Shown piece by piece: positions 4,190 through 54,025 of a stretch of DNA of 64,000 nucleotides. Below the pieces are notes generated by a model, which had not been told where the DNA came from, ran no database searches, and saw only the letters and a list, made by a program, of their open reading frames with translations. Location of the stretch: the IMG/VR virus record IMGVR_UViG_3300024229_000651; one strand, written 5' to 3'. Position 1 is the first letter of the stretch. The number at the start of each line of letters is the position of its first letter. Source of the stretch: a virus (Duplodnaviria; Caudoviricetes). A program made the position numbers and the translations under genes.

Positions 4190-4213
4190 TTAAAAAATAG
4201 ATTGACACTAAAG

Positions 4214-4241
4214 AAGCCTGCTTCACAGCAGGCTTTTTTTT
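4214..4241 (+). terminator. Rho-independent terminator
   Basis: AAGCCTGCT-TCAC-AGCAGGCTT followed by a T run. Confidence 0.85.
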
Positions 4242-4259: not shown

Positions 4260-4266
4260 ATAAATA
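4260..4266 (+). promoter_or_regulatory. Late-type promoter ATAAATA
   Basis: Just after the terminator, upstream of AAGGA RBS and the lysozyme ATG. Confidence 0.65.
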
Positions 4267-4295: not shown

Positions 4296-4739
4296 ATGGA
4301 CCGCAAAGCAATATTTGAACAACTAAAAATCGACGAAGGAGTTGTTTATGAAATTTATAAAGACCATCTGGGCTACCCAACTTTCGGAGTTGGCCACCTG
4401 GTCACAGAAAACGATCCAGAGCACGGAGCAGAAGTCGGAACATCCGTATCTGAGTCAAGAGTGGCAGAATGCTTTGAACGTGACCTTGACACCTCAATTA
4501 GTGAATGTGTTGCGTTATACGGAGAACAGTTTAATGAATGGCCAGGAGAAGTACAAGAAATCCTAGTTAACATGATGTTCAACATGGGCAGAACACGTTT
4601 AGGCAAGTTTAAAAACTTCCGCAAGGCACTAGAAGCTCAAGACTGGAAGAAAGCAGGAATTGAAGGCAGAGATAGCCGTTGGCACAAACAGGTAACTAAC
4701 CGTGCTGAAAGACTAATGGTAAGATTAGAGGAAGTATAA
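4296..4739 (+). CDS. T4-type lysozyme/endolysin (GH24)
   Basis: QLKIDEG...YKDHLGYPTFGVGHL catalytic E-x8-D-x5-T pattern; NMMFNMG; RWHKQVTNRA. Confidence 0.9.
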   Translation: MDRKAIFEQLKIDEGVVYEIYKDHLGYPTFGVGHLVTENDPEHGAEVGTSVSESRVAECFERDLDTSISECVALYGEQFNEWPGEVQEILVNMMFNMGRTRLGKFKNFRKALEAQDWKKAGIEGRDSRWHKQVTNRAERLMVRLEEV

Positions 4740-5407
4740 TGACTGTGTATACCTTCGGGTGTAGCTTTACTTACGGATGTGAAGGTAGCGACTACAATGC
4801 AACTAGTTGGGTTGAGAAACTTGCACAGAGATACCCAGATATAGAATTTGAAGATTTTGCTTATCCGGGTACATGTATAGAGTACAGTTTATATCATTAT
4901 GAAAAAGTTGCTAAAAGATTGCAGCCAGAAGATATAACTGTATTCCAGTTTACAATTCCATTTAGATACACAACATGGACTAACAGTGCAGTATTTGATG
5001 ACCCGCAGAACAGGCATAAAAAATCGTCGAACTATACAAAATTTGTACCAGATTTTAATATCAATTTAGAAAGATATATAGGTAATTTACGAAATTGGCA
5101 GTATCACGATAATCAGGAATTGCTAGATAAGGAATTTCATACAAAGTATTATACAAAATTTAACGAGGGTAAAGAGATGGCGGCATACAATGCTATCGCA
5201 AACTATCTTAGGAGTAAAACAACATTTACGTTTTTTCACACTGAGCCGCCAGCTGGCGTGGATGATAAAGACAGTGTTGTAATACAAAACATTTTAGGTA
5301 AACAGTTTAAAAAATATACGTGGGACTGGGGACGACATTTTGGTGACGAAGGCTGTAATTTTGTAGCCGACATTGTTGAAGAAAACATAGGATTAAAAAA
5401 CAAATGA
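4739..5407 (+). CDS. SGNH-like protein
   Basis: TFGCSFTYG, FAYPGTC, RHFGDEG; TAATG-coupled to the lysozyme gene. Confidence 0.55.
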   Translation: MTVYTFGCSFTYGCEGSDYNATSWVEKLAQRYPDIEFEDFAYPGTCIEYSLYHYEKVAKRLQPEDITVFQFTIPFRYTTWTNSAVFDDPQNRHKKSSNYTKFVPDFNINLERYIGNLRNWQYHDNQELLDKEFHTKYYTKFNEGKEMAAYNAIANYLRSKTTFTFFHTEPPAGVDDKDSVVIQNILGKQFKKYTWDWGRHFGDEGCNFVADIVEENIGLKNK

Positions 5408-6177
5408 AATTAAATGATTTAGGCAAAAAGTATCTAGAGTTAGAGAATGGTACAGGAAATTTTAATATAAAAGTTGGCGGTGAAACTATCAATACTGTTG
5501 CTGGGAGTGACCGTGCAAATAAATTTGTTGAGTCCTTGAAAAGAAAAGGCATCACGGCAATAGCAGAAGCGGACGAGCCCACAACTGATAAAAGTGCTAG
5601 AGCTAGATTAGATCTTAATCTACGTGATCGAGGACACAGCGTTGAAAAGCCTAAAAAAGGCAAAGGATCGTATGCACGTTCAGACAAGCATAAGAAGCCA
5701 GTGTCTGAAGGGCCACTAGTGGTTAGTAGATCATCCGACTTAATGGGGATGCTTGATGTATTACTAAAAGATTTCAAAAGCAAAAGTCCAAGCGATGAAG
5801 AAATGATCGCTTTAGTAAAGTCGCTTGGTTATAACATGACCAAAGATGGTGAGCGCACTACGTTAGTTAAAGAAGAAGATTGCGATATCGACGAGGGTAA
5901 CGGTAACATACGCAAAGGCTTAGCCGCAGTAGCGTTGATTGCTGGGTTGTGGAGTGTTAATGACCATGTAGCACAGAAGGCATATGATGCCAGTCCACAA
6001 CTACAAAAATTAACAGCATATCTAGAAGTAGCAAAAGACCATAACGATCAGCGTATGATTGATCAGTTAGAGCAACGTATTGGAAACCACAAGACCAGAA
6101 TCGATATTGGTAAGGGCGAAGTGATGGGTAACGATGGTCGCCCAGTGGACGTTAAATACGACAAGGAAGCTAATTAG
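5404..6177 (+). CDS. Modular protein with an internal ArfA-like motif; probable head-associated polyprotein
   Basis: RGHSVEKPKKGKGSYARSDKHKK at aa76-98; xxE sites IAE, VSE, VKEE, IDE; hydrophobic KGLAAVALIAGLW. Confidence 0.55.
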   Translation: MKLNDLGKKYLELENGTGNFNIKVGGETINTVAGSDRANKFVESLKRKGITAIAEADEPTTDKSARARLDLNLRDRGHSVEKPKKGKGSYARSDKHKKPVSEGPLVVSRSSDLMGMLDVLLKDFKSKSPSDEEMIALVKSLGYNMTKDGERTTLVKEEDCDIDEGNGNIRKGLAAVALIAGLWSVNDHVAQKAYDASPQLQKLTAYLEVAKDHNDQRMIDQLEQRIGNHKTRIDIGKGEVMGNDGRPVDVKYDKEAN

Positions 6178-6720
6178 TTATTGTTTCGATATAAGCTCTT
6201 TTGCAGCTTCATCACTCATAGGTTGTCTTCCCGGATTATTAGGAAAAACGCAACAAGGTTGTACATTGTAAAACTCTCCACGTTCTTCGCACCACAGACG
6301 TTGCCAGTAATTGCCGTCAACATCTAATTCAATGTGCAATCTTTTATCTGTGTCCATAAAAACGTCAACCATGTCCTTGCCTTCCTGAAAAGATGCTGTT
6401 CGTGCAAGTTTATCAAGATATTCCCCTTCAGGTGATAATCCAAACAAAGGAACAGCACCATCCCAATCTGGATGATCTGCTTGCCAGGACTCTTCGGTAA
6501 TATCCCACTGGGGTGCATAAGTTCCTAATAAATCGGAAAAATTATCACTTAGCCAGAACTTTTCATTTTCCCAGTCATCAAACCCATCTAACTCGATCTC
6601 TTCGCCGTTATAGTTTTTTGTTAGACTTTCTCCGCCGTTGTCTGTAACATATTGCAAGTTTTCATTAATTGTACAAGTCAATCTGCCTATTGTTTGATCA
6701 TGTATCCATGTAAGTTTCAT
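6178..6720 (-). CDS. Hypothetical acidic protein
   Basis: 180-aa ORF with GCGGAG RBS, its own ATAAATA, and a stop convergent with 6177. Confidence 0.7.
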   Translation of the reverse strand: MKLTWIHDQTIGRLTCTINENLQYVTDNGGESLTKNYNGEEIELDGFDDWENEKFWLSDNFSDLLGTYAPQWDITEESWQADHPDWDGAVPLFGLSPEGEYLDKLARTASFQEGKDMVDVFMDTDKRLHIELDVDGNYWQRLWCEERGEFYNVQPCCVFPNNPGRQPMSDEAAKELISKQ

Positions 6721-7097: not shown

Positions 7098-7613
7098 ATG
7101 AAAATATATGAAATTACAGAAGCAGAAGGCGATAACTGTGAAAAATGTCGTGGCCGAGGCAAGTTAGACTTACATAGTGAAGATCCACATAAGTGTAATG
7201 CGTGTGATGGCACTGGCAAACAAAAGTGGAAACCAGAACCAGTTAATTTCAGTAAGTTTAAGAAGGTTGGCGAGCAGGTTGAAGAAACCATTGACAACGA
7301 TGATGATTTTTTTGAAGCATACGGCTGGATAGACGGCGAATCACTCGAAGAAGCAGAATATCAAGGACGTAAAGTTAAACTAGGCAAGCCTATGCAAGGT
7401 GATGTTAAGAAGTTTAAAGTTTATGTTAAAGATCCTAAAACAGGTAATGTTAAAAAAGTTAACTTTGGACACGGCGGAAGCAGTGTTAAAGGTAAAGCAA
7501 TGAAGATTAGAAAATCTAATCCTAAGGCTCGTAAGAGTTTCAGAGCAAGACATAACTGTGATAATCCAGGGCCTCGCACTAAGGCACGTTATTGGTCATG
7601 TAGGAAGTGGTAG
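7098..7613 (+). CDS. Leader-tagged protein with DnaJ-type Zn finger and basic C-terminal module
   Basis: MKIYEITE leader; CEKCRGRG and CNACDGTG; after LEE a K/R-rich module KKFKVYVKDPKTG...KSFRARHNC...YWSCRKW. Confidence 0.7.
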   Translation: MKIYEITEAEGDNCEKCRGRGKLDLHSEDPHKCNACDGTGKQKWKPEPVNFSKFKKVGEQVEETIDNDDDFFEAYGWIDGESLEEAEYQGRKVKLGKPMQGDVKKFKVYVKDPKTGNVKKVNFGHGGSSVKGKAMKIRKSNPKARKSFRARHNCDNPGPRTKARYWSCRKW

Positions 7614-15512: not shown

Positions 15513-15588
<76 letters not shown>

Positions 15589-36347: not shown

Positions 36348-36695
36348 TTATTGTGGTAATTGGTCTTTTACGGAACTGAGTGCTTGGTCCCCGGCTAAGC
36401 CAGGAACATCAACTTCAGGCTCTTCAGGCTCTTCGCCGTCGAGCATATCGTTATCAATTTTACCTTTGGGAGTAATGGAATCTGCTGTAATACCGCTAAC
36501 AACATCCAATTTGTTCATAGCTGCAATAAGTTCTTCTACACTTAATAAAAACCCATCATCTGCTAAATCGTTTTTGAATTCTTGCGTAGGTATATCACTG
36601 ACATCTTCTCCAGCATACTTTGCAAGCCTGTCGCGGATTGCAACTTCTAGTTCGTCAAAAAATGACTCTAGTAAAAATACTTCCGCGATTCGCAT
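36348..36695 (-). CDS. Acidic hypothetical protein, probable head component
   Basis: MRIAEVFLLE leader; coupled to 36697. Confidence 0.6.
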   Translation of the reverse strand: MRIAEVFLLESFFDELEVAIRDRLAKYAGEDVSDIPTQEFKNDLADDGFLLSVEELIAAMNKLDVVSGITADSITPKGKIDNDMLDGEEPEEPEVDVPGLAGDQALSSVKDQLPQ

Positions 36696-38692: not shown

Positions 38693-38860
38693 CTACTTAA
38701 TAGATGATTGTACTTTTGGTCCAGGCTTTTTCTTAGGGCCGATCTTTTTAGGCTTCTTAGGTCGTTGCACTACTCTCTGTACATCGTTAGCAATGGACGG
38801 AATTGACGTTGCTACAGCGCCAGCTGTTATTGTTTCACCAATTATATCATGTATTTTCAT
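38693..38860 (-). CDS. 55-aa leader-tagged basic peptide (not in ORF track)
   Basis: MKIHDIIGETITAGAVATS...RPKKPKKIGPKKKPGPK; ATAAATA 6 nt upstream (38867-38873). Confidence 0.75.
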   Translation of the reverse strand: MKIHDIIGETITAGAVATSIPSIANDVQRVVQRPKKPKKIGPKKKPGPKVQSSIK

Positions 38861-41216: not shown

Positions 41217-41756
41217 CTAGTTGTTTATTCTGATATTCACGACGTCCCAATCAATGATACGCCATATATTACTAAGGTATTTAGCTTTGTCGTGCTGATA
41301 GTCTAATGCCCACGCATGCTCCCACCAATCAATGAGCATTGCTATGTCATTTTTAATTTGGTGGTTAACTATTGTTTTGATATCACCGGATAAACTCATG
41401 TACACCCATCCGCTGCCTTGAATCTTCATTGCTACTTCTTCAAACTGCTCTTTGAAAGTCGCAAAGTCGCCGTATTTGCTATCTATAAGCTCTTTACTTG
41501 CCCCTGCAGGGTTATTACTACTACTTGGTGTTTTTAGCTGTGGGAAGAATACGTTGTGTAAGAATGCACCTGCTTCCATGAACTGTGCATCTCCTTTGCC
41601 TTCATTATATTTTGTAACGTATGCTTTAGCAAGTTTGCCGTAGTGAAAATTGATTGTGTCTTCACTCATTACAGGATCCAAGTCACTCTTGCTGTAAGGT
41701 AACTTTTCTTGCACTAACACTTTTTTATCTTCTGTTAAAAAATCGTGTAGTTTCAT
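41217..41756 (-). CDS. sod: Fe/Mn superoxide dismutase with N-terminal leader
   Basis: LPY, FHYGK...AY, LHNVFF, GSGWV, IDWWEHAW; N-terminus MKLHDFLTE. Confidence 0.9.
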   Translation of the reverse strand: MKLHDFLTEDKKVLVQEKLPYSKSDLDPVMSEDTINFHYGKLAKAYVTKYNEGKGDAQFMEAGAFLHNVFFPQLKTPSSSNNPAGASKELIDSKYGDFATFKEQFEEVAMKIQGSGWVYMSLSGDIKTIVNHQIKNDIAMLIDWWEHAWALDYQHDKAKYLSNIWRIIDWDVVNIRINN

Positions 41757-41950
41757 TTTTTCTTACCGCCTTTCATATTAGCACACCAGTGATACATTTT
41801 ACCCTTTTCACCACTGTATTTTTTAGCTTTTGCCCGTAAACTACTTACCGAACCTTTGCAACTTGCGCCTGCTTTTTTGACTCTACCTGGTCTGCTCTTG
41901 CCTTTCTTCTTACCGTCAGCAAAGTTTTCTGTAATTTCAACTATTTTCAT
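41753..41950 (-). CDS. 65-aa leader-tagged basic peptide
   Basis: MKIVEITE then NFADGKKKGKSRPGRVKKAGASC...HWCANMKGGKKK. Confidence 0.8.
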   Translation of the reverse strand: MKIVEITENFADGKKKGKSRPGRVKKAGASCKGSVSSLRAKAKKYSGEKGKMYHWCANMKGGKKK

Positions 41951-44900
41951 GCGTCTGGCTTGAATTCAAACGCAAACTTTCCGCCAATGCGTGAACTGTA
42001 ATAATTCTTGGCGCCGTCTAAGCGAATTTTACCCCGGAAATTAGGTGGATACAACGCTTCCCATCCTGTTACTCTAGCATTGTCGCCTTGTTTACCCATC
42101 TTGCAGTATAACTGAACAATACTGGACTGGTTAAGGAATGCAATAGCACCTGCACTAAATTGAGGTTCTTCGTTAATCATTGCTGCTACTTTTTTAGCCA
42201 GTAACGCAATTAACGCATATCCTACATTGAATCCAGGTATGTCCTGTTTAGGTGTTCCATAGTTAAATAGTTCTTTCGCCGATTTGCTTAATCCATCGTA
42301 ATCAGTTTTTCCTGCTTTAACGTACTCCATGATTTCTAGTTCTAACTTTTTAGGTAATACACCCAACAGTTCTGCTAATCTAAATGGTCCGTCGATTGCA
42401 GTAGATTCTTGTACAATCTTAATTATTTTAACTGTGTATGCATGTGCTTTGACTAATTCTGGTGGTGCTTTATCGATAGCATCTGCAATGTTCTTAGCAC
42501 TTGCTTTTGCACCCTTGCCGCCTTTACTACTGATGCCAACTTCGGTTCCGTCTGGGCCAATGAAAACACTATCAACCAGTGCATAGTTCATTGCTTGCGG
42601 CCAGAATACTCCAAACGTAGACCACTCGGCTCCGCCCATTAAATCTTGTCTAGCATCTTCAGCTTGTCCGCCCACCATGCCGCTCATCAATGCAACTGGT
42701 CCCATGATTTCACCAAAGTAATCTCTTAGTGCCGGTAAGTTCTGTATTTGGCCTTCAAATTCAGGATGTTGCTGTGCTTGGATACTGTGCAAAGCATCTA
42801 ATAGCTGTTGCTGTATTGCGTGTCCCTGGCTGTTATTCGAGACAGTGTTTATTATGTCATCTACGCTTGTATGCTGATTTTCGTTTTTGATTAAGTGCTG
42901 TGGGTCGATACCAAGGTCTAATTTTAATGCGCCAGCTTTTTGTAATTTCCAACCAGTTGGAACTTGATTATTAGCCCATGCTCCCATCATATCTACACGC
43001 TTCTGCTTAAAATATCGACCCCAGTACACTGGCTTATCATTATTACTAGGATCTGTAAGTGTTGCAATACCGAAAGCTAGACTACCGCTGTTTGGAGTGT
43101 TAGTCCACTCAATTTGTGCATTGAGCTGTTGTTCTATATCTGATGCAAAACTTTCACGCTCTGGTGCATCATCGAACTGTGCACGATCCTGTGGGTAAAC
43201 TTCTACACTGCTGAACTCAAGCGTACTGTCCCCTTTCTTAAATTGGTCGCCCACCACTCGTCCCATTAAACCTTTTGCTTCCGCAAGTATGCTCTTAACG
43301 TGAGAGGAACTCCACTCGTTTAATTTTATTTGACTTTGAACTTCTTCAGGTAGTGCTTGAGAGAAATATTTAACTATACCTCTAGCACATGCATCGTCGC
43401 CAGCTTGCGCTCTAAGATCATGAAATGCATCTAGCATTTCAGGTATAGGCATTACTTGGTATGCAAGCATTTGCTTCTTTAAATCACATACTGGAAAATG
43501 GTCTGCCATTAACCCATTAATAATTTCTGCTCTATTAAAATCGTGCACACTCTCAAAATTCAATGCTCGCATCTCACGCTCGAATTCCAAATCGTCTAAT
43601 TTTTTACGAGTGGCTGCTTTTTTAGCATCAAATTTTGCTGGACCATACTTATCCTGGTCTTTATAAGTTTTCCTATTAGCCGATCTCTTAACTGTTTTCT
43701 TTTTACCAGGTAAACCTTTTGTCCATGCTGTGTCTGGTCTACGATTAGGCAATGAAACTTTTTCTACCCGTTGAATACCCAGTTCTTTACTTGTGGGATT
43801 GGCAGGATCTTTGTATTTTCCATCAGCTGATGCTACTTTCCTTTTGGCACCTAGTCTTGTTTGAGCAACAACTTTTTTATTTGTGCCATCCCTATATACG
43901 ACATTATACAGATATTCACCAGTGCGCAATTCTACTTTTTCATCTTCAGGTGAGGCTTTAGAAGTATCTCTGCGAGCTTGTTTTGCAATTGCTTCATCAA
44001 TTTTATTTTTATCAATTTTTTCTAAAATGGCTAGTTGTTCCAATATTGGCAACTTATCAAATTTGTCAAACGGTGTCATTTTACTTTCCTGTACATCAAA
44101 TTTTATATTAAATCTCTGGCTTAGTAATTTACGATGGTCAGTTTTTAAAAAGCTGTGCGGAACGCCGATTGGTTCGCTCTGATATGTAGTACCAGCTGGA
44201 GCAAAGCCATACTTCTTGACAAACGCATCAACAACAGGTTTATATTCCATCTTTTTGGCTTCAAATTCTGCAATATCCTGTTGTCTTTGTCTAATAGAGC
44301 CTTTGAGTCTTTCTACTTTTTCTGGTTCAGCAACTTTAAGACCTTGCTTTATACCGTCGATCAGTCCTTGTTCATGTTCGATATAACGAGTAGCCTCGTC
44401 CACTTCAAAGCGAGCACGTTTAACTTTGTCTAACTCGTCATCGCTAATCACTTTAAAATCTTGTTGACTGATTGTTGCATTACTATCGGGCTTGTTATCG
44501 CCGAATAGGTCACCGAACAGTGCACGATGCTTATCTGTGGGTATTGCTATAACGTGTCCTTTAGGTGCAGTAATAGTGTATGATGCTTCCGGTGCGTTAG
44601 CATCCTGCTTTTTCAACAAGCTGTTTACAGCCGAAGCCATCTTTTCTAGTTTGTTGTGATGATCTCCCGGGAAGTTTTTCACAAACTCTGACTGTTGTAG
44701 TTCAGTCCACAATGCTTTAGGCGTTAAGCTGAAGTCTTTTAACGCTTGTCTAAATGCTGCAATAGCCGCCGATTTAGGTTCAGCCCTATTAGCACCGCTT
44801 GCAACGTCACTGGCTAACATAGCAAAAGCTCGCACAAAGTATTTCTGTGCTTTAATCATTGTTCTACGCCAGTCTTCGTCATCGCCTTCGGCTTCGAACG

Positions 44901-47028
44901 GCATCTCTTGTTGTGGATTAGCGTTCTTTGCACTTTGTGCATCTGCTAATTCCATGTATGCATTGCTCAATGATTCAATAGCATCTGTATAATGTTTTTC
45001 ACTTGCAATACTTTGGAAAGCAGCTAACACTTTATCGTTAATGCTTTCTGGGTCAACCATTGTTTGAGCTCTTTTAACAACATCGCCGCTTACTTCGTCT
45101 TTGCCTGCAATCATTTTAAACAGTGCTTTGATGTAGTCCTTGCGATATGCTTCTTCATCATGCCCGGCTTGCATCACTGCGGCATAACGGATAACTGCTT
45201 TCATCACTTTGTCGCTCATAGTGTGATAATCGTCGCCACCTGCAACACGGAATTCAATAAGTTTATTTTGCTCTACGTTTTTAGCATCTTTAAAGTTGAT
45301 ACTGCTGAACTTGCCATTACTGATGCCGCCTAACAGTATGTCTTCGAGACCAGCAAGGCTCTTTTCATCCTTGATATCGTTTTGTAGATTTTTGATATAC
45401 TTTCGTACTGTTTCTTGTTGACTCTGTGTATAAGTGTTATGCTCTCTGCCAAACTGCTTTAACACATACTTGTCGCCTAACAGCACAGCCATTTTTAGCT
45501 TGTTAGTTTTAGCGTAGTCCGAATCCATCCAACTCATTGTGACATGCAAACCAGTTGAACTGTTTGTTTCCACATTGTTGTTGTTCATGTACTCAAACAA
45601 ACTCTTCATCTCTTTGAGCATTTCTGCTGGGTTGTCATATACAGGTGAAATAATCTCTGCTTTTGCACCTTCGCCTTCGATTGAGGTGTCATCTTCCACA
45701 CGCCAATGGTCATTGTCTACGCCTTGGCCACTGTGATATACGCCCGGACGTACATCGTTGCTCTTACTGTTGTTGCTGGCCCAATCCTCTAGCATACTAG
45801 CTACAGCATCAACACCGCCGCCTTCGCCGCCTTCGTTGTACAAGTAAATGTCCATTTCGCCTAATAGGCTCCACCAACTGCCGCCGTGTTCTCTGCGAAC
45901 CCAATCGTCCATGTCGTATTGATCCATTGCACGTTGCCAGGATTCGTCCCATGCTTCGCCATTGTCGCGGATCTGTTCCTCTAGCCACTCAATAAATTCG
46001 TCTTCTTTGTACATTTCAACATATTCACGAGGCCATGCTTCATCGTCCCAATTGCTGTACTCTTCCAGCTCGTCCTGCATGTCGTCGATTTCTAATCGCT
46101 CCAGTTTGTCTGCCTTGTACTCTTCCACTTCGTCCATGTCAACATGATCGTTTACAAACTCATCTATGTACGCTTCATCTTCTTTGCGTTCGTTGACTAG
46201 CTCTAGGACAACGTCACTCTCTATTTCGTATACAACTTCTTCTTGTAGCCATTCGCGGTATGCTTCTTCCACACTCTCCACTGCACGTGATCCTTCTTGA
46301 TCGTAAATCAAATCACCGACACGGTTCCAATACAGGTCGTCTAGCCAACTGGTGTCGTCCTCGTCACTGCCTTCGCCTAGGTTAGGCCACACAGTTTCCG
46401 CTTCAAAGCCGCACTGTATGTTCGCATTCAGTGCACCTTGTGCAAGCTCTTTGCTGTTGAAGTTGATTTCAAAAATAGGCTCACCTTGTTCGGTCATTTT
46501 AATTTTACGGGTGAGCTTTTTGATCTTTTTTTGCAAACGATCCCGCTTAAAATGAAAATTACTTGTGCTACTTTTAGATAATTTGTCTAACTTGCCTTCA
46601 GTAAACTCTGGATTAGCCACAAACACTTCTTCGTCGGGGTCGTCTATAACTGAATATTCTTTTGTTTTAGGGTTCTGCACTACTACTGCTTCAGGCTTTG
46701 TGCCTTTTCCGATAGGAGATTTTACTACACCTGCTGATTTTCCATCTTTATCAAAGTATTCCATATCTGTTTTTAGTTCGCCTGCTTTAGCATTAATAAA
46801 TTTTGGAGTCTCTTGATCATTTGCTTTAGGAACTTCTAGACCAGGCGTGGTAGTAGGGCTTCCTAAATCAGGTTTGGCTGCTGTTTTACTTGTAGTAGGT
46901 GATTTTGTAGATGCATTTGCTTTTGCACTTGATCCCATGGATTGTTGGGAAGTAGGTGTACTTGCCCCTGGCTTCATACCATACTCCATAAGTAAATGAT
47001 CTATAGTCCTAATATCTGTGAATTTCAT
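41947..47028 (-). CDS. 1693-aa multidomain protein containing a putative amidoligase (COOH-NH2 ligase) domain
   Basis: GFEAET, WRVEDDTSI, AEIISP, TNSSTGLHVTMS, KFSSINF, IEFRVAGG; many xxE module boundaries. Confidence 0.7.
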   Translation of the reverse strand: MKFTDIRTIDHLLMEYGMKPGASTPTSQQSMGSSAKANASTKSPTTSKTAAKPDLGSPTTTPGLEVPKANDQETPKFINAKAGELKTDMEYFDKDGKSAGVVKSPIGKGTKPEAVVVQNPKTKEYSVIDDPDEEVFVANPEFTEGKLDKLSKSSTSNFHFKRDRLQKKIKKLTRKIKMTEQGEPIFEINFNSKELAQGALNANIQCGFEAETVWPNLGEGSDEDDTSWLDDLYWNRVGDLIYDQEGSRAVESVEEAYREWLQEEVVYEIESDVVLELVNERKEDEAYIDEFVNDHVDMDEVEEYKADKLERLEIDDMQDELEEYSNWDDEAWPREYVEMYKEDEFIEWLEEQIRDNGEAWDESWQRAMDQYDMDDWVRREHGGSWWSLLGEMDIYLYNEGGEGGGVDAVASMLEDWASNNSKSNDVRPGVYHSGQGVDNDHWRVEDDTSIEGEGAKAEIISPVYDNPAEMLKEMKSLFEYMNNNNVETNSSTGLHVTMSWMDSDYAKTNKLKMAVLLGDKYVLKQFGREHNTYTQSQQETVRKYIKNLQNDIKDEKSLAGLEDILLGGISNGKFSSINFKDAKNVEQNKLIEFRVAGGDDYHTMSDKVMKAVIRYAAVMQAGHDEEAYRKDYIKALFKMIAGKDEVSGDVVKRAQTMVDPESINDKVLAAFQSIASEKHYTDAIESLSNAYMELADAQSAKNANPQQEMPFEAEGDDEDWRRTMIKAQKYFVRAFAMLASDVASGANRAEPKSAAIAAFRQALKDFSLTPKALWTELQQSEFVKNFPGDHHNKLEKMASAVNSLLKKQDANAPEASYTITAPKGHVIAIPTDKHRALFGDLFGDNKPDSNATISQQDFKVISDDELDKVKRARFEVDEATRYIEHEQGLIDGIKQGLKVAEPEKVERLKGSIRQRQQDIAEFEAKKMEYKPVVDAFVKKYGFAPAGTTYQSEPIGVPHSFLKTDHRKLLSQRFNIKFDVQESKMTPFDKFDKLPILEQLAILEKIDKNKIDEAIAKQARRDTSKASPEDEKVELRTGEYLYNVVYRDGTNKKVVAQTRLGAKRKVASADGKYKDPANPTSKELGIQRVEKVSLPNRRPDTAWTKGLPGKKKTVKRSANRKTYKDQDKYGPAKFDAKKAATRKKLDDLEFEREMRALNFESVHDFNRAEIINGLMADHFPVCDLKKQMLAYQVMPIPEMLDAFHDLRAQAGDDACARGIVKYFSQALPEEVQSQIKLNEWSSSHVKSILAEAKGLMGRVVGDQFKKGDSTLEFSSVEVYPQDRAQFDDAPERESFASDIEQQLNAQIEWTNTPNSGSLAFGIATLTDPSNNDKPVYWGRYFKQKRVDMMGAWANNQVPTGWKLQKAGALKLDLGIDPQHLIKNENQHTSVDDIINTVSNNSQGHAIQQQLLDALHSIQAQQHPEFEGQIQNLPALRDYFGEIMGPVALMSGMVGGQAEDARQDLMGGAEWSTFGVFWPQAMNYALVDSVFIGPDGTEVGISSKGGKGAKASAKNIADAIDKAPPELVKAHAYTVKIIKIVQESTAIDGPFRLAELLGVLPKKLELEIMEYVKAGKTDYDGLSKSAKELFNYGTPKQDIPGFNVGYALIALLAKKVAAMINEEPQFSAGAIAFLNQSSIVQLYCKMGKQGDNARVTGWEALYPPNFRGKIRLDGAKNYYSSRIGGKFAFEFKPDA

Positions 47029-48396: not shown

Positions 48397-48900
48397 TTAC
48401 TTTCTAGGCTTACGAATATTGCTTTTCATAAGTTTATCTGCAACATTAACAAAATCTTTGCTAATATCTGCGCCTAATTCAGCTGAATCAACGTTGAATA
48501 CATCCCTAGCAACTTGTTTAATCTTGTCTTTTGCTGCTTTGTACTTGGCGCCGGGTGTTGTTTTCTTATCCTGATAATACTGATTACCCCATTTCTTTCC
48601 TGATTTATCGCTAACTCTGTCAACTGTAGTGCTCGTAGTTGGCTCTGGTCTGGTCATAGGAGTTCGTTTTATTTTTTGGGCAGGTTCTTCCTTTGTATCA
48701 GGGGATTGCTTTTGTTTTCTGCGTTCGATGTCCTGAGCCATGCCAATAGCGTCTAATGCACTTATACCTTTATTAGACACTATACGTTTAGCTCTGGATA
48801 TAACATTATTACTTAACGAAGATCCGTGCTGTGCTTGTATTTGAGCTATCTGGTCAACGGTTAAATTTTCGTCTTCTAGAATTATATCGCTGATTTTCAT
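48397..48900 (-). CDS. Leader-tagged hypothetical protein
   Basis: MKISDIILEDE N-terminus. Confidence 0.7.
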   Translation of the reverse strand: MKISDIILEDENLTVDQIAQIQAQHGSSLSNNVISRAKRIVSNKGISALDAIGMAQDIERRKQKQSPDTKEEPAQKIKRTPMTRPEPTTSTTVDRVSDKSGKKWGNQYYQDKKTTPGAKYKAAKDKIKQVARDVFNVDSAELGADISKDFVNVADKLMKSNIRKPRK

Positions 48901-49679: not shown

Positions 49680-50974
49680 TATGCTCCAGGCTTCCCGGAG
49701 CCGAAATTCAATCTGCTAAATTCTAATCTATCAACTAACTTTAACGCATTGCCAATCCTGTCAACTGCTACGAAACCTTCCTCGCCAGTAACTTCAAATC
49801 CGTCACCTGTTTCTACAAAAGTTCCTATTTGCCTGATTTGTTCTAACTTTTTAACTATACGAATTTTTGCTTCGATCAACTTTAAATATAAATCGTATAC
49901 TGCAACAATTCCAGGAATGTGCTCTTTGATAAACTTAACACCGCCTACCATTTTTTCAGTTTTAGCATCTTTAGTTTTTTGCATAGAAACTTTGTCTATT
50001 TCTTTCTTCATAAAGTTAACATATTTTTCAACAAAGCCTTGCGCAAATTTAGTAGGCTCATCGAAGTGGCCTTGACGCACTTGATTATTTGCATGAGCTT
50101 TTAGCTGTTGCAAAAAGTCTTTACCGATCAAGTCGTTGCCCTTCTCTAGCCAAGAAAATGTTTCAGAATCAACACTCTTTAGATATGATGCTGCATCTTG
50201 TATTGCTTGCATTGTAGCAGAGCTTTCCTGTGCAGTCATTGTAACAGTGCCGCTAAGATCTTTAATTATCGCATCTCTGTGCCAAACACCATTGGTCTGT
50301 CCTAACACACTGCTGTCGAAGCCAAATTTTGCAGTTGTATCAGCTAGTGTTGGGCCGCCTACGTATTCTGTATGCCAAACTATACCAAAGCCTGCTGAAA
50401 GAATTTGTTTTCCTAAATCACTATCAGCTGGAACAGCATATGTGATAGTGTTGGGCTTGAATACAATATGTTCTGTATTGTCTATAACAACTTTACGTAA
50501 ATCTTCTTGTCCTGCGAATAGCATGTCGCCTTGCGCTACAGTGTCCCAATTTAATCCTTGCAAATATTTTAATGCTAATTTTAATTTAGTACGCAATCCG
50601 CTCGAATCTTTACCCTTGGGATCTGCATGATTAACATCAATATCTTTGTTTGTAAAATTTATTTTAGGTGTTTGCGCAAAAACGCCCTTAGTTCCTACAA
50701 AAAACTTACCTGTTGCAGGATCTTTACCTGCTATAATAGCAGGAGCACCATCCCATTTTGTTGTCATACTGATCGGTGCTTTTGAATTACCTTCCAGCAT
50801 ATCGTGTAAACTGTACAAATATTCTACTGCTTCTTTAGCGCCGGCATACCCTTTATTAAATATGTTGTCTTCTAGGTGCTCAAGGTGCGTGTTTTTACCA
50901 TCCTTGCTTTCTGTAATTACAGATTCAGATAATATGTTAACAACTTTAGGCTTTGATATTTCTATAAACTTCAT
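49679..50974 (-). CDS. KxDG ligase/nucleotidyltransferase-like protein with leader
   Basis: KNTHLEHLED, TTKWDGAPAI, QGDMLF, FKPNTITY, EGFVAVD; N-terminus MKFIEI...LSESVITE. Confidence 0.6.
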   Translation of the reverse strand: MKFIEISKPKVVNILSESVITESKDGKNTHLEHLEDNIFNKGYAGAKEAVEYLYSLHDMLEGNSKAPISMTTKWDGAPAIIAGKDPATGKFFVGTKGVFAQTPKINFTNKDIDVNHADPKGKDSSGLRTKLKLALKYLQGLNWDTVAQGDMLFAGQEDLRKVVIDNTEHIVFKPNTITYAVPADSDLGKQILSAGFGIVWHTEYVGGPTLADTTAKFGFDSSVLGQTNGVWHRDAIIKDLSGTVTMTAQESSATMQAIQDAASYLKSVDSETFSWLEKGNDLIGKDFLQQLKAHANNQVRQGHFDEPTKFAQGFVEKYVNFMKKEIDKVSMQKTKDAKTEKMVGGVKFIKEHIPGIVAVYDLYLKLIEAKIRIVKKLEQIRQIGTFVETGDGFEVTGEEGFVAVDRIGNALKLVDRLEFSRLNFGSGKPGA

Positions 50975-52332
50975 TATATTCCCGCAAGTAACTTCATTTC
51001 ATAAATCTTAATTTCTTTTACTGGTATAAGCATTACATGACTAGTCACGCTCTCTGATACAAGAATTTCAAACCCTACATCTTCCCACGTAAACCCTGCG
51101 GCCTCTAATACTTTGCACATATGCTGATATGCTTCTTGTCGCATACTTCTTGCAAGTTTAGTGAAATGCGTATATGCCTGGGGGTCACTTTTGGCTAAGC
51201 CGCCTTTCTTCATTACTGGAGCAGCTGCTTGTATAAATTTATCTGCATCGTATCCTTTGGTTTTTAAATTACTTAATTTACCAACAAGTGCTTTTGCAGC
51301 TGCTAAATCACCTTGCAATGTCTTGGATTGTAGCATTTTAATTTCTGATGCAGTGGGACCTGGAACTGGCTTAGGGCCTTTAGGCTGTGCTGGTGCATCC
51401 GCAGCTGGTTGGTCAGTTGCTGGTTGGTCAGTTGCTGGTGCATCTGCGGCAGGTTGTTCTCCACCTTTACCTAACGCAGACATAGCTCGGCCGATACCAG
51501 CTCCCACTGTTGCGCCAGCTTTCTTTATAGTGCCAGCATCTGGATCTGATCTTGTTGCTGTAGCAAGTGGTCCGCCGATAGCATCTGCGCCTGCTTTTTT
51601 AATTTTGTCAATACCTTGTCTAATTTTTCCGCCTAGACTATCATCCGGTGCTTGTATAACACCTGTTTTAGGATCAGGTGTTCCAGCGGCTTTATCCAAC
51701 GATTTAGACATTCTACTGTTAGGATTTTCAGCACTCGCATTTGGATCAACAACACCCTTTTGATCTGACGGCATCCAACCTTGATCATTTCGTACAAAAT
51801 GCTTACCTTGAGGCGTCTTAACAATAGCGCCAGGTATCTTACTTGGGTCTTTAGACGCTGGAGCGGCTTGTGCAGGTGCTGCTTGTGGAGCGGCTTGTGC
51901 TGGTGCTGCTTGTGCTGGTGCTGCTTGTGCAGGTGCTGCTTGTGCAGGTGCTGCTTGTGCAGGTGCTGCTTGTGCAGGTGCTGCTTGTGCAGGTGCTGCT
52001 TGCCCTGCCTTCTTAGCGGCTATTGCTGCCTTCTTTGCCTGTATGGCTGCTGATCCGCCGGCTAGTGCATCCTGTGGTTGGGCTGTACTGTTTCCTTTTA
52101 CTTGGGATCTTAAGGCCGGGTCTGTTAAAATATTGCCTTTCTTGCCGGCGGCTGTTTGTTTTACAGGAGCAACTTTAGGTTGCTTAGGCTGTGCCGGTGC
52201 TGCTTTTTTCTTTTTATTAAAAATAGCATCGTAATTGCTACTAAAGTTTTTCTGTGCTTTTGCAGACTGATCTCCACGTAATGCGCCTGGTTTTCCGGGG
52301 ACGGGTGCTTCTTCTATTTGTTCAAGTCTCAT
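50974..52332 (-). CDS. Low-complexity leader-tagged protein with QAAPA repeats
   Basis: MRLEQIEE; ten QAAP(A) units; C-terminal MKLLAGI. Confidence 0.7.
   Translation of the reverse strand: MRLEQIEEAPVPGKPGALRGDQSAKAQKNFSSNYDAIFNKKKKAAPAQPKQPKVAPVKQTAAGKKGNILTDPALRSQVKGNSTAQPQDALAGGSAAIQAKKAAIAAKKAGQAAPAQAAPAQAAPAQAAPAQAAPAQAAPAQAAPAQAAPQAAPAQAAPASKDPSKIPGAIVKTPQGKHFVRNDQGWMPSDQKGVVDPNASAENPNSRMSKSLDKAAGTPDPKTGVIQAPDDSLGGKIRQGIDKIKKAGADAIGGPLATATRSDPDAGTIKKAGATVGAGIGRAMSALGKGGEQPAADAPATDQPATDQPAADAPAQPKGPKPVPGPTASEIKMLQSKTLQGDLAAAKALVGKLSNLKTKGYDADKFIQAAAPVMKKGGLAKSDPQAYTHFTKLARSMRQEAYQHMCKVLEAAGFTWEDVGFEILVSESVTSHVMLIPVKEIKIYEMKLLAGI
51856..52002 (-). repeat. 15-bp coding tandem repeat, ten units (one 12 bp)
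   Basis: (TGCAGGTGCTGCTTG)n on the plus strand, encoding QAAPA. Confidence 0.95.
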
Positions 52333-52651: not shown

Positions 52652-54025
52652 CTAGAAATCATTCTTCTTCATAAACTCACGCATGTTAAGTGCTGTACTC
52701 ACTGTATCCTGCGCTTCAGGTTCTTGCGCAGAAATACTACTATTTCGTTTTAATTGATCTACTAGGCTACTTGTGGTAACAGTCATTGCATCGTCGTCGT
52801 CGTCATCTAAATCTTCAATACGTAATGTGTCAGGATTAAATTTTAAATCCACTTTACTACCGACACCACTACTGCTACGTGTTTTCATAAACTGTATTTG
52901 ATATCTACCACGTTCTCTCATAGCATTACTTGTAAATATACCTACAACATTATCTGCTGTTTGTATTTTACTAATGCCGCCTGCAATATGACTATGATCG
53001 AACTCAATCTCTTCTACAGCACTCCTGCCTAACTGCGATGCTGTTACTAATAATATATCTCGTTCAGAAGCCAAATTGCGTAATTCTTCGGATACATACT
53101 TGTCTTTCACGTATAGATTTTCAGGTGATATCTTAGCACTGATAGGCATCATCAAATCTAAGTAATCCACTAACACTGCATCCACTTTTATATCACTGTT
53201 AATCTCGTATTCTCGAATAAATGCTCTAATATCATTTGTATTAATTCCACTAGGCATTTGTTTTACTCTAAACTTTCCTGCGCCTTTGCCTTTCATTCGG
53301 ACTTTTAAGTCTACATCATCCATATTTTTCATAATTTCTCTGGCGCCGTAACCACTAACCATACTGTCCAGTCTCATACTAATAAGTGGCTCACTAAGTT
53401 CTAAACTTATGTATACAACATTAAGTCCAGCTAAACTCCAATTAACACCAAAGTTCTGTAAAAACAAACTTTTGCCTGCGCCCGATCCTCCTGCGAATAT
53501 TGTTATTTCGCCTCTGTTCAGGCCACCGTATAATTTTCGATCAATGCCTTGCCAACCTGTGCTAACTGCACCTGATTGACTTTTGATATACTGCAATCTT
53601 TCCTTAGGATTTTCAAAATACTCTAAACCTAAATCTTTGACTAGTCCAACTTGTACAGCCTCTTTAATTTTAGTTTCTACTGTACCGTAATCTTGGTTCT
53701 CTAAGAGATCTGTACTTTCAAGAATTGCTTTTTCTAGTGCTTTATGTCTACAAAACTGTTCGAAGTTATCTAGGAACCATTCTATATGATTTTCATTGAT
53801 TCCTTCAATACGTTCTAGTTCCACTCCGGTCTTTGCAGTTATTTGATCAATGGTAGGAATACTATTGTATTCGTTAGCATGATCTTGTAAAAATCCAACA
53901 GTTTCCCTAAAGCGTCTATTAAACATCTCCGGTTGCACTATATTACTTACACGTATAAACAACTCAGGATCTGTTACTAAAAACTTTAAATATAACTCTT
54001 GTATTTCTTCTGTGTATTCCTGCAT
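52652..54025 (-). CDS. dnaB: Replicative DNA helicase (T4 gp41/DnaB-like)
   Basis: GGSGAGKS, YISLELSE, VLVDYLDLM, TASQLGR, FMKTRSS. Confidence 0.95.
   Translation of the reverse strand: MQEYTEEIQELYLKFLVTDPELFIRVSNIVQPEMFNRRFRETVGFLQDHANEYNSIPTIDQITAKTGVELERIEGINENHIEWFLDNFEQFCRHKALEKAILESTDLLENQDYGTVETKIKEAVQVGLVKDLGLEYFENPKERLQYIKSQSGAVSTGWQGIDRKLYGGLNRGEITIFAGGSGAGKSLFLQNFGVNWSLAGLNVVYISLELSEPLISMRLDSMVSGYGAREIMKNMDDVDLKVRMKGKGAGKFRVKQMPSGINTNDIRAFIREYEINSDIKVDAVLVDYLDLMMPISAKISPENLYVKDKYVSEELRNLASERDILLVTASQLGRSAVEEIEFDHSHIAGGISKIQTADNVVGIFTSNAMRERGRYQIQFMKTRSSSGVGSKVDLKFNPDTLRIEDLDDDDDDAMTVTTSSLVDQLKRNSSISAQEPEAQDTVSTALNMREFMKKNDF

Follow-up and report, generated by a model that had tools for sequence, protein, structure and literature searches.

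An ArfA-like tail within a mosaic jumbo-phage protein delimited by candidate prohead-protease sites

Introduction

Why would a large bacteriophage carry, in the middle of one of its proteins, a short segment that resembles the bacterial ribosome-rescue factor ArfA? The question is raised by a 64,000-nucleotide stretch of DNA (hereafter, the window) from the IMG/VR virus record IMGVR_UViG_3300024229_000651 (Duplodnaviria; Caudoviricetes), in which a gene at 5404–6177 on the plus strand encodes a 257-residue mosaic protein, P0001, arranged as beads on a string. An earlier reading of the window from its letters (the original prediction) had proposed that an ArfA-like peptide lies between two putative cleavage sites in this protein and that, once released, it could rescue ribosomes stalled by host anti-phage cleavage of messenger RNA (mRNA) or transfer RNA (tRNA), or could block translation. 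The nearest cultured relatives of the virus, judged by its capsid protein, are Pseudomonas phage PA5oct (70%), followed by Vibrio phage 2.275.O and Cronobacter phage GAP32 (62–64%), and the virus is a PA5oct/Rak2-like jumbo phage, distantly related to T4.

The bacterial factor offers a structural yardstick. According to cryo-electron microscopy, residues 31–48 of ArfA lie in the mRNA tunnel of the 30S subunit and His21–Glu30 in the A site, while RF2 is bound, and kept in its active extended form, by a hydrophobic N-terminal minidomain (Ala18, Leu19, Leu24 and Phe25; Pro23 lies at the decoding centre); ArfA truncated at Asn47 is active and ArfA truncated after Met40 is inactive (PMC5378476).

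Here, we describe the locus, the protein family and the sites that bound the ArfA-like segment, and we weigh several explanations for its presence. As read from the sequence, the finding is more structured than an isolated motif: an ArfA-tail bead within a mosaic jumbo-phage protein delimited by protease motifs. We tentatively favour the view that this protein is a capsid-targeted polyprotein, diced by the phage's own prohead protease, and that the bead would become a peptide able to bind ribosomes with an empty mRNA tunnel.

Results

The ArfA match is confined to the tail of one bead

P0001 is made up of four modules, all encoded on the plus strand; a vertical bar marks each predicted cut. 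Module A (5404–5568, residues 1–55) begins MKLNDL and its final residues form the junction I53-A54-E55|A56 (5560–5571), a candidate prohead-protease site by sequence. Module B has a head (5569–5640, residues 56–79, ADEPTTDKSARARLDLNLRDRGHS, with a helix predicted at 65–75) and a tail (5641–5709, residues 80–102, VEKPKKGKGSYARSDKHKKPVSE, of which residues 80–97 are the ArfA-like part, corresponding to ArfA 29–46), and it ends in a second candidate site of the same kind, V100-S101-E102|G103 (5701–5712). Module C (5710–5895, residues 103–164) closes with the junction I162-D163-E164|G165, while module D (5896–6174, residues 165–257) contains an Ala/Gly-rich hydrophobic helix (GLAAVALIAGLWSV, residues 172–185) and two more helices. 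The interval given for the peptide in the original prediction, 5569–5709, corresponds exactly to residues 56–102, ADEPTTDKSARARLDLNLRDRGHSVEKPKKGKGSYARSDKHKKPVSE, within which R76 to K97 reads RGHSVEKPKKGKGSYARSDKHK, and the E. coli ArfA string quoted there agrees with b4550 as translated from the K-12 record.

The resemblance to the ArfA core is real and statistically sound, and it is limited to the tail. Against the Pfam ArfA profile (PF03889), the whole protein matched over residues 80–97 at profile positions 27–44 of 44 with 22.6 bits (E 7e-5), under the 25.5-bit cut-off, and the excised 47-mer reached 26.4 bits (E 5e-6); E. coli ArfA itself scores 89.5 bits over positions 2–43. A phmmer search against all PDB chains returned only ArfA chains, with 13 of 20 residues in the tail segment VEKPKKGKGSYARSDKHKK identical to E. 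coli ArfA 27–46 and with the tunnel-region motif KGKGS[YF] present at the sequence level. When 26 module-B variants were compared with 14 enterobacterial ArfAs using hhalign, module columns 24–42 aligned with ArfA 28–47 (probability 73%, E 3e-5). The tail pattern VEKxKKGKGSYxRxxKH is equivalent to residues 29–45 of ArfA (E. coli YhdL), the tunnel segment, and the phage basic residues R92, K95, H96, K97 and K98 stand where ArfA has R41, K42, K44, H45 and R48.

The match is short (18–20 residues) and lysine-rich, and its whole-protein Pfam score is under the gathering cut-off, all of which would suit a chance or low-complexity resemblance without biological meaning. Against this, a hidden Markov model of enterobacterial ArfA residues 1–55 gave 22.8 bits for the real peptide and no better than 14.8 bits for any of 20,000 composition-preserving shuffles; because no shuffle reaches the real score, lysine richness does not account for the match. 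In addition, a six-frame scan of the whole 340-kb genome gave a single ArfA match, the module B tail (25.6 bits), and the motif is kept between phages with synonymous changes only and recurs in independent scaffolds. We consider coincidence very improbable.

The RF2-activating half of ArfA

The profile search on residues 56–102 proposed in the original prediction matched ArfA at its C-terminal positions 27–44; positions 1–26 were detected in module B by neither hmmscan nor hhalign, the ArfA alignment supplied to hhalign being enterobacterial only and of limited sensitivity for the N-terminal half. In the ungapped register (offset 51), ArfA Ala18, Leu19, Pro23, Leu24 and Phe25 correspond to L69, D70, R74, D75 and R76; a very remote likeness of the module B head to the ArfA N-terminus may nonetheless be present. 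The suggestion that KGKGS itself recruits RF2 is not supported: recruitment depends on the N-terminal minidomain and the mid-region (PMC5378476), a half that is unaligned here. With the RF2-activating half undetected, these alignments do not make module B a full ArfA family member; it plausibly works like the tunnel-sensing half of ArfA.

The parallel drawn with truncated ArfA is sound as regards tail length. A cut after E102 would place the C-terminus at the equivalent of ArfA residue 51, between the shortest active truncation, at Asn47, and the natural form of about 55 residues. Setting and route differ: ArfA is a stand-alone protein of 55–72 residues, truncated by way of RNase III-cut non-stop mRNA, whereas the module B tail is embedded in a 257-residue multi-module protein and would be truncated by a capsid protease. 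A bacterial-style truncation through an RNA hairpin was considered and rejected, as the RNA downstream of the tail is predicted to be no more strongly folded than its shuffled versions (z −1.1) and contains no Rfam element.

A full analogue of ArfA, much as put forward in the original prediction, would bind the empty tunnel once freed and would also recruit and activate RF2 (or RF1) to hydrolyse peptidyl-tRNA, rescuing ribosomes stalled by host anti-phage RNases. The tail does match ArfA, and the predicted cut would leave it as long as in active ArfA (PMC5378476). The head, which is conserved and helix-forming, with spaced L69, L71 and L73 and an invariant Gly-His, lies in the place of the A-site and RF2-contact parts. 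There are precedents, in BrfA and a Francisella factor, for a tunnel-binding tail joined to a very different head that can still recruit a release factor. Neither is known to share sequence with the RF2-binding half of ArfA, and module B lacks sequence similarity to either. Both are release-factor-dependent rescue factors (BrfA, PMC6881298; the Francisella factor, which recruits RF1 or RF2, PMC6299226). Phage genes annotated as ArfA also exist, at the annotation level only: gp30 of pelagiphage HTVC027P (PMC12753301) and g10 of Citromicrobium phage RXM (PMC8953757). Set against the full analogue are the unmatched profile positions 1–26, the fall of the RF2-contact residues Leu19, Pro23, Leu24 and Phe25 on D70, R74, D75 and R76, and the fact that the same head is mostly paired with a non-ArfA tail. 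On balance, we regard it as unlikely.

Tail exchange and selection in module B

Module B was found in 35 distinct variants. All share the head A[DE]EPxxDxSARAKLDxxLRxxGHKV, in which P, S, R, L, G and H never vary. Its SARAKLDxxLRxxGH portion, which occupies the place of the ArfA N-terminal half, is strongly conserved with either of two tails: the ArfA-like type 1, EKPKKGKGS[YF]xRxxKHK (9 of 35 variants), and type 2, [EV][KP]D[KR]KKxxKKGxVKHKGK (the other 26). The expectation that homologs would conserve KGKGSY is therefore borne out for a subset and not for the majority, which have the other lysine tail; counted by protein, KGKGSY occurs in 5 of 68 family proteins (P0001/P0002, P0003, P0004, P0012 and P0069). 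Because the head subtypes LDLNLRDRGH and LDHSLRAQGH each occur with both tail types, tails have been exchanged between heads. A frameshift origin of the two tails was rejected, the other two frames of the P0001 tail DNA being, by eye, unlike the type 2 tail.

Type 2 tails align with positions 18–39 of DUF7230 (PF23876) at E-values of 7e-4 to 7e-3, below the cut-off and over the tail part only, and the second-best Pfam match of E. coli ArfA is to this same part of DUF7230 (E 0.11). Whole DUF7230 units fill the module-B slot in P0018, P0020, P0024 and P0026. P0001 differs in that its tail is of the ArfA type rather than the DUF7230 type, and the Pfam scan returned no DUF7230 match for it. These sequence relationships hint at a broader class of basic tails that takes in both DUF7230 and the ArfA tail.

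Selection was assessed from codon differences between the P0001 gene and its ortholog P0004. Module A shows 17 synonymous and 13 non-synonymous differences, the module B head 13 and 2, the module B tail 7 and 3, and module C 15 and 29. With 20 synonymous against 5 non-synonymous differences over its whole length, module B is the most constrained of the N-terminal modules, and none of the non-synonymous changes in the tail falls inside VEKPKKGKGSY. This codon comparison shows module B to be translated, under purifying selection and more tightly constrained than the modules beside it.

Exchangeable basic tails are central to the main rival explanation, in which the beads would be lysine-rich, DNA-condensing internal peptides that neutralise the charge of the 340-kb genome, with interchangeable tails and no ribosomal role. 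Nearly all beads are indeed lysine-rich, the ArfA-like tail alternates with a DUF7230-like lysine-rich tail of equal length, each of the two head subtypes is seen with each of the two tail types and, in T4, only the lysines of the internal proteins contact DNA phosphates (PMC3012670). However, identity to ArfA at 13 of 20 positions goes far beyond what composition yields (0 of 20,000 shuffles), conservation extends to the non-basic residues G, S, Y, V and E, with synonymous changes only in VEKPKKGKGSY, and the conservation of the head exceeds the needs of charge neutralisation. Moreover, stand-alone phage open reading frames (ORFs) of 45–70 residues with the same tail sit among small, non-structural-looking genes. 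We think DNA condensation a serious contender, although an improbable one.

Junction motif and prohead protease

The boundaries between beads were examined by defining module starts from conserved internal cores, which gave 137 distinct upstream contexts for six unrelated module types. Glu stands at P1 in 134 of the 137, I/L/V/M/F at P3 in 125 and A/G/S at P1' in 132, compared with background frequencies of 7.6% for Glu and 23% for ILVMF. Of the 35 distinct contexts that precede module B, 34 have Glu at P1; all 31 that precede module C have Glu at P1 and I/L/V at P3. As the upstream modules differ, the aliphatic P3 is a feature of the junction rather than of any single module. In P0001 the sites are IAE|A, VSE|G and IDE|G, and the two that flank module B, already picked out in the original prediction, turn out to be no isolated coincidence, since [ILV]-x-E|[A/G] junctions recur across the family.

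The prohead protease of T4, gp21, has the specificity L/I-X-E and was first seen to act at a Glu-Ala bond (PMC9026906), while T4 Alt is cut at ITE-6 and LTE-619 (PMC5694885). A gp21-type protease gene (Peptidase_S77; 85.5 bits, E 6e-25) is present in this genome at G000:C1:272216-272659, where it adjoins acidic and coiled-coil scaffold-like genes and the gene for a gp23-type major capsid protein, whose N-terminal region contains HLQE|S. From the agreement of these motifs, we infer that the junctions are cleavage sites of the prohead protease.

Leaders and gene order compared with T4

Many family members open with short leaders such as MKIIQITE|A, MRLYQLFE|A, MRITEITE|G and MKIQDIVE|G; the T4 counterparts are MKTYQEFIAE|A at the start of IPIII and IPII, with ...STITE|A in IPI. 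The start pattern M[KR][ILV]x[DEQ][ILVF] occurs in 9 of 389 predicted genes here, as against 2 of 2322 internal Met positions, and eight of those nine genes have, by eye, [ILF]xE at residues 8–10, the exception being P0001. Genes with such leaders, resembling the T4 capsid-targeting sequence of about 10 residues that ends at a cleavage site (CTS-like), lie on the minus strand of the window at 36348–36695, 38693–38860, 41217–41756, 41753–41950, 48397–48900 and 50974–52332, and also at genome positions 274499–274699. The gene at 41217–41756 (−) encodes an Fe/Mn superoxide dismutase, an unusual candidate for a packaged enzyme. Because a gene for a DnaB-like replicative helicase (52652–54025, −; phrog_19, E 3e-75) adjoins it, the block of CTS-like genes is not purely structural.

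In gene order, too, the locus recalls T4, where e is followed directly by ipIII and ipII: the mosaic gene follows a lysozyme gene directly in related contigs and, in the window, with a 222-residue ORF between them. The likeness to the T4 internal proteins IPI, IPII, IPIII and Alt, known from sequence, extends to a gp21-type protease encoded in the same genome with L/I/V-x-E|A/G boundaries, to leaders of the MK..[DE][IL]..[ILV]xE type in family members and neighbouring genes, to the position of the mosaic locus downstream of an e-type lysozyme and to hypervariability of the family between related phages. The mosaic protein differs from these T4 proteins in having no sequence homology to any of them and in the extent of its predicted processing: they lose just a short propeptide, whereas P0001 is predicted to be diced into peptides of 47–93 residues, a multi-site dicing in which it resembles the T4 core proteins gp22, gp67 and gp68.

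The mosaic family and its predicted structures

A search of 5.8 billion proteins yielded 68 relatives of the mosaic protein, all of them metagenomic, and no paralogs of modules A–D were found elsewhere in the 340-kb genome. The alignment of the family is a mosaic of shuffled mini-modules, with only module D, marked by near-invariant columns at 177–254, common to nearly all members. Flanking it in many combinations and orders are mini-modules of 30–90 residues: A, B, C, DUF7230 units, an SPHP...GKLVGE unit, DnaJ-like zinc ribbons, two-Cys lysine-rich units and an AEYQG... unit. Module A, for instance, is also found in P0003, P0004, P0006, P0007 and P0009.

With the family alignment as input, AlphaFold2 (AF2) predicted a small beta-beta-beta-alpha fold for module A (predicted local distance difference test score, pLDDT, of about 70–77), a single helix (65–75) and then a disordered basic tail for module B, a confident alpha-alpha-beta-beta mini-domain for module C (pLDDT about 87) and three helices for module D, the first of which (173–196) is of low confidence and holds the hydrophobic run. 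No usable structural match was obtained with a Foldseek search of the AF2 model against PDB or from the ESM Atlas for module D.

The combination of a hydrophobic run with a nearby lysozyme suggests another alternative, that P0001 is an uncleaved, membrane-anchored lysis-cassette protein: the module D helix would serve as a weak signal-anchor-release (SAR)-like anchor of a holin-, antiholin- or spanin-like protein, the variable beads would be cytoplasmic and joined by acidic linkers, and the junctions would be linkers or recombination scars. The gene does appear to lie in one unit with the lysozyme, its 14-residue Ala/Gly-rich hydrophobic stretch is followed by helices, and most two-Cys beads come after module D in the chain, with zinc ribbons before it. 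But the implied topology is inconsistent, as module B follows a D-like module in P0079 and two-Cys beads are N-terminal in P0026, P0028, P0040, P0058 and P0068, and several proteins that carry module B have no module D (P0074, P0078, P0083, P0070 and P0072). Furthermore, a membrane span would normally call for a longer hydrophobic run, an aliphatic P3 kept after unrelated modules would be unexpected in a passive linker, and family scans of the protein gave no holin or spanin match. A lysis role strikes us as decidedly unlikely.

Module B also occurs inside giant proteins of 972–1700 residues (P0070, P0072 and P0110). P0072 is homologous to a 1693-residue Amidoligase_2-domain protein encoded at 41947–47028 (−) in the window (39% identity over 1050 aligned columns). 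In the homologs P0072, P0070 and P0110, module B and other beads sit in a variable central insert; the 41947–47028 copy has a different basic insert at the matching position. The label 'ArfA' given to P0072 by JGI is due to its ArfA-like module B.

Stand-alone forms of module B were sought in two ways: a word-indexed search gave no candidates, but an exhaustive profile search did find some. Ten stand-alone metagenomic ORFs of 45–83 residues emerged from the latter, in which the ArfA profile was matched only from positions 23–28 to 43–44. These minis (P0075, P0076, P0080, P0087 and others) resemble module B in their KKGKGSY-type tail and in matching only the C-terminal part of the profile; P0075 and P0076 also share with it the context LRxxGHxVE, and P0076 is found on phage-like contigs. 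Both the minis and the annotated phage ArfAs are free-standing ORFs of 45–85 residues, whereas module B is a polyprotein bead.

Locus and neighbouring genes

An intrinsic-terminator-like hairpin with a T run (4210–4239, +) closes the unit upstream of the lysozyme. The T4 e-type lysozyme (4296–4739, +, 147 residues) is the first gene of the next unit, and its ortholog in related contigs, a PF00959 Phage_lysozyme, lies directly upstream of the mosaic gene. Between the two genes in the window is the 222-residue ORF (4739–5407, +), whose stop overlaps the start of the mosaic gene and which has no Pfam or PHROG match; in related phages it has shrunk to a short remnant that retains its first and last codons (L006 7904-8000). 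Because no other terminator-like site was found on the plus strand between the 4210–4239 terminator and 6177, the lysozyme, the 222-residue ORF and the mosaic gene appear to be transcribed together as a single unit.

The motif ATAAATA occurs at 4260–4266, about 30 nt 5' of the lysozyme start. It also lies shortly 5' of many other gene starts (sites include 4260, 6761, 12129, 21005, 27028, 33957, 38041 and 47982), with no overall enrichment in the window (35 sites against 30 expected). As a weak hint, it may be the late-promoter core of the NATAAATA type; the T4 late promoter TATAAATA shows no enrichment in the window, with 4 occurrences where 8 would be expected.

The product of a second mosaic gene (7098–7613, +) opens with the CTS-like leader MKIYEITE|AEG and continues through a zinc ribbon of the DnaJ-like CxxCxGxG kind to the junction SLEE|AEYQG, followed by a basic module. 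This basic module is phrog_7595 and forms the C-terminus of several mosaic-family members. A 45-residue ORF at 6134–6271 (+), which overlaps the 3' end of the first mosaic gene in a different frame and has a lipobox-like LIGC, was entertained as an o-spanin candidate and judged probably spurious, its signal region being poor and the ORF lying opposite a 180-residue ORF (6178–6720, −). The whole virus record comprises 339,794 bp and, genome-wide, ten tRNAs and no transfer-messenger RNA; a tRNA-Thr(UGU) gene lies at 15513–15588 (−).

Discussion

What, then, might an ArfA-like tail be doing in this position? The explanation that we prefer, and that we put forward as the leading candidate while stopping short of calling it probable, treats P0001 as a capsid-targeted polyprotein. 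The mosaic protein would enter the prohead core in the manner of the T4 internal proteins, and the T4-type prohead protease would cut it after Glu at [ILV]-x-E|[A/G] junctions. Among the pieces set free would be the peptide ADEP...PVSE, with a net charge of about +5, whose free C-terminal tail VEKPKKGKGSYARSDKHKK would copy the segment of ArfA that fills the vacant 30S mRNA tunnel, the cut leaving a tail equal in length to that of active, truncated ArfA. A free C-terminus would be needed, because a tail held between folded domains could presumably not thread a closed tunnel.

The released peptide would then bind ribosomes with an empty tunnel, such as non-stop or cleaved-mRNA complexes. It might act on arrival in a new host cell, should it be ejected together with the DNA, or in the cell that made it, should the fragment escape from the maturing prohead. 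Binding could be followed by release through a release factor, engaged by the peptide's own conserved head instead of an ArfA N-terminus, or might amount to occupying or blocking the tunnel.

A number of points weigh against this polyprotein explanation. One group concerns capsid targeting: P0001, starting MKLNDL, has no [ILV]xE at residues 8–10 and offers its first candidate site at E55; the hydrophobic helix of module D is absent from T4 internal proteins; and no homolog was detected in the cultured phages of INPHARED by searches with the DNA, the whole protein or the module. A second concerns delivery. In T4, small cleavage fragments mostly exit the prohead before DNA enters (PMC5694885), for which reason delivery to the next host is uncertain and action in the producing cell possible. 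A third concerns function: the N-terminal half of ArfA went undetected in module B, all modules are lysine-rich and the lysines of T4 internal proteins contact packaged DNA (PMC3012670). Finally, most sister genes bear a DUF7230-like lysine tail, not KGKGSY, on the same head and, if function is family-wide, it therefore does not depend on the ArfA-specific motif.

The polyprotein explanation also has a bolder form. Module B, with either tail, and the DUF7230 units might together constitute a new class of phage translation effectors—tunnel peptides stored inactive in a capsid-targeted polyprotein, switched on by the prohead protease when it creates a free C-terminus and carried along with the DNA into the next host, where they would rescue ribosomes from anti-phage RNase attack or block host rescue. 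We offer this extension as speculation that is unlikely to hold.

Conclusions

At its most conservative, our analysis suggests that the ArfA Pfam matches in module B and in the ten stand-alone minis tested represent a tunnel-binding tail only, and phage Pfam-ArfA matches of this kind should not be counted as evidence of RF2-dependent rescue. If the polyprotein explanation is true, no virion-maturation protease before this one would have been seen to produce a ribosome-targeting peptide, and the "C-terminally truncated ArfA" state would be reached by a second route, independent of the first. The biology of the phage head would also be tied to the control of translation and to counter-defence directed at systems that cleave mRNA or tRNA. 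The explanation would further offer a link to function, in that it would provide a testable one for a large unannotated family of shuffled mini-modules in PA5oct/Rak2-like jumbo phages, and possibly for DUF7230.

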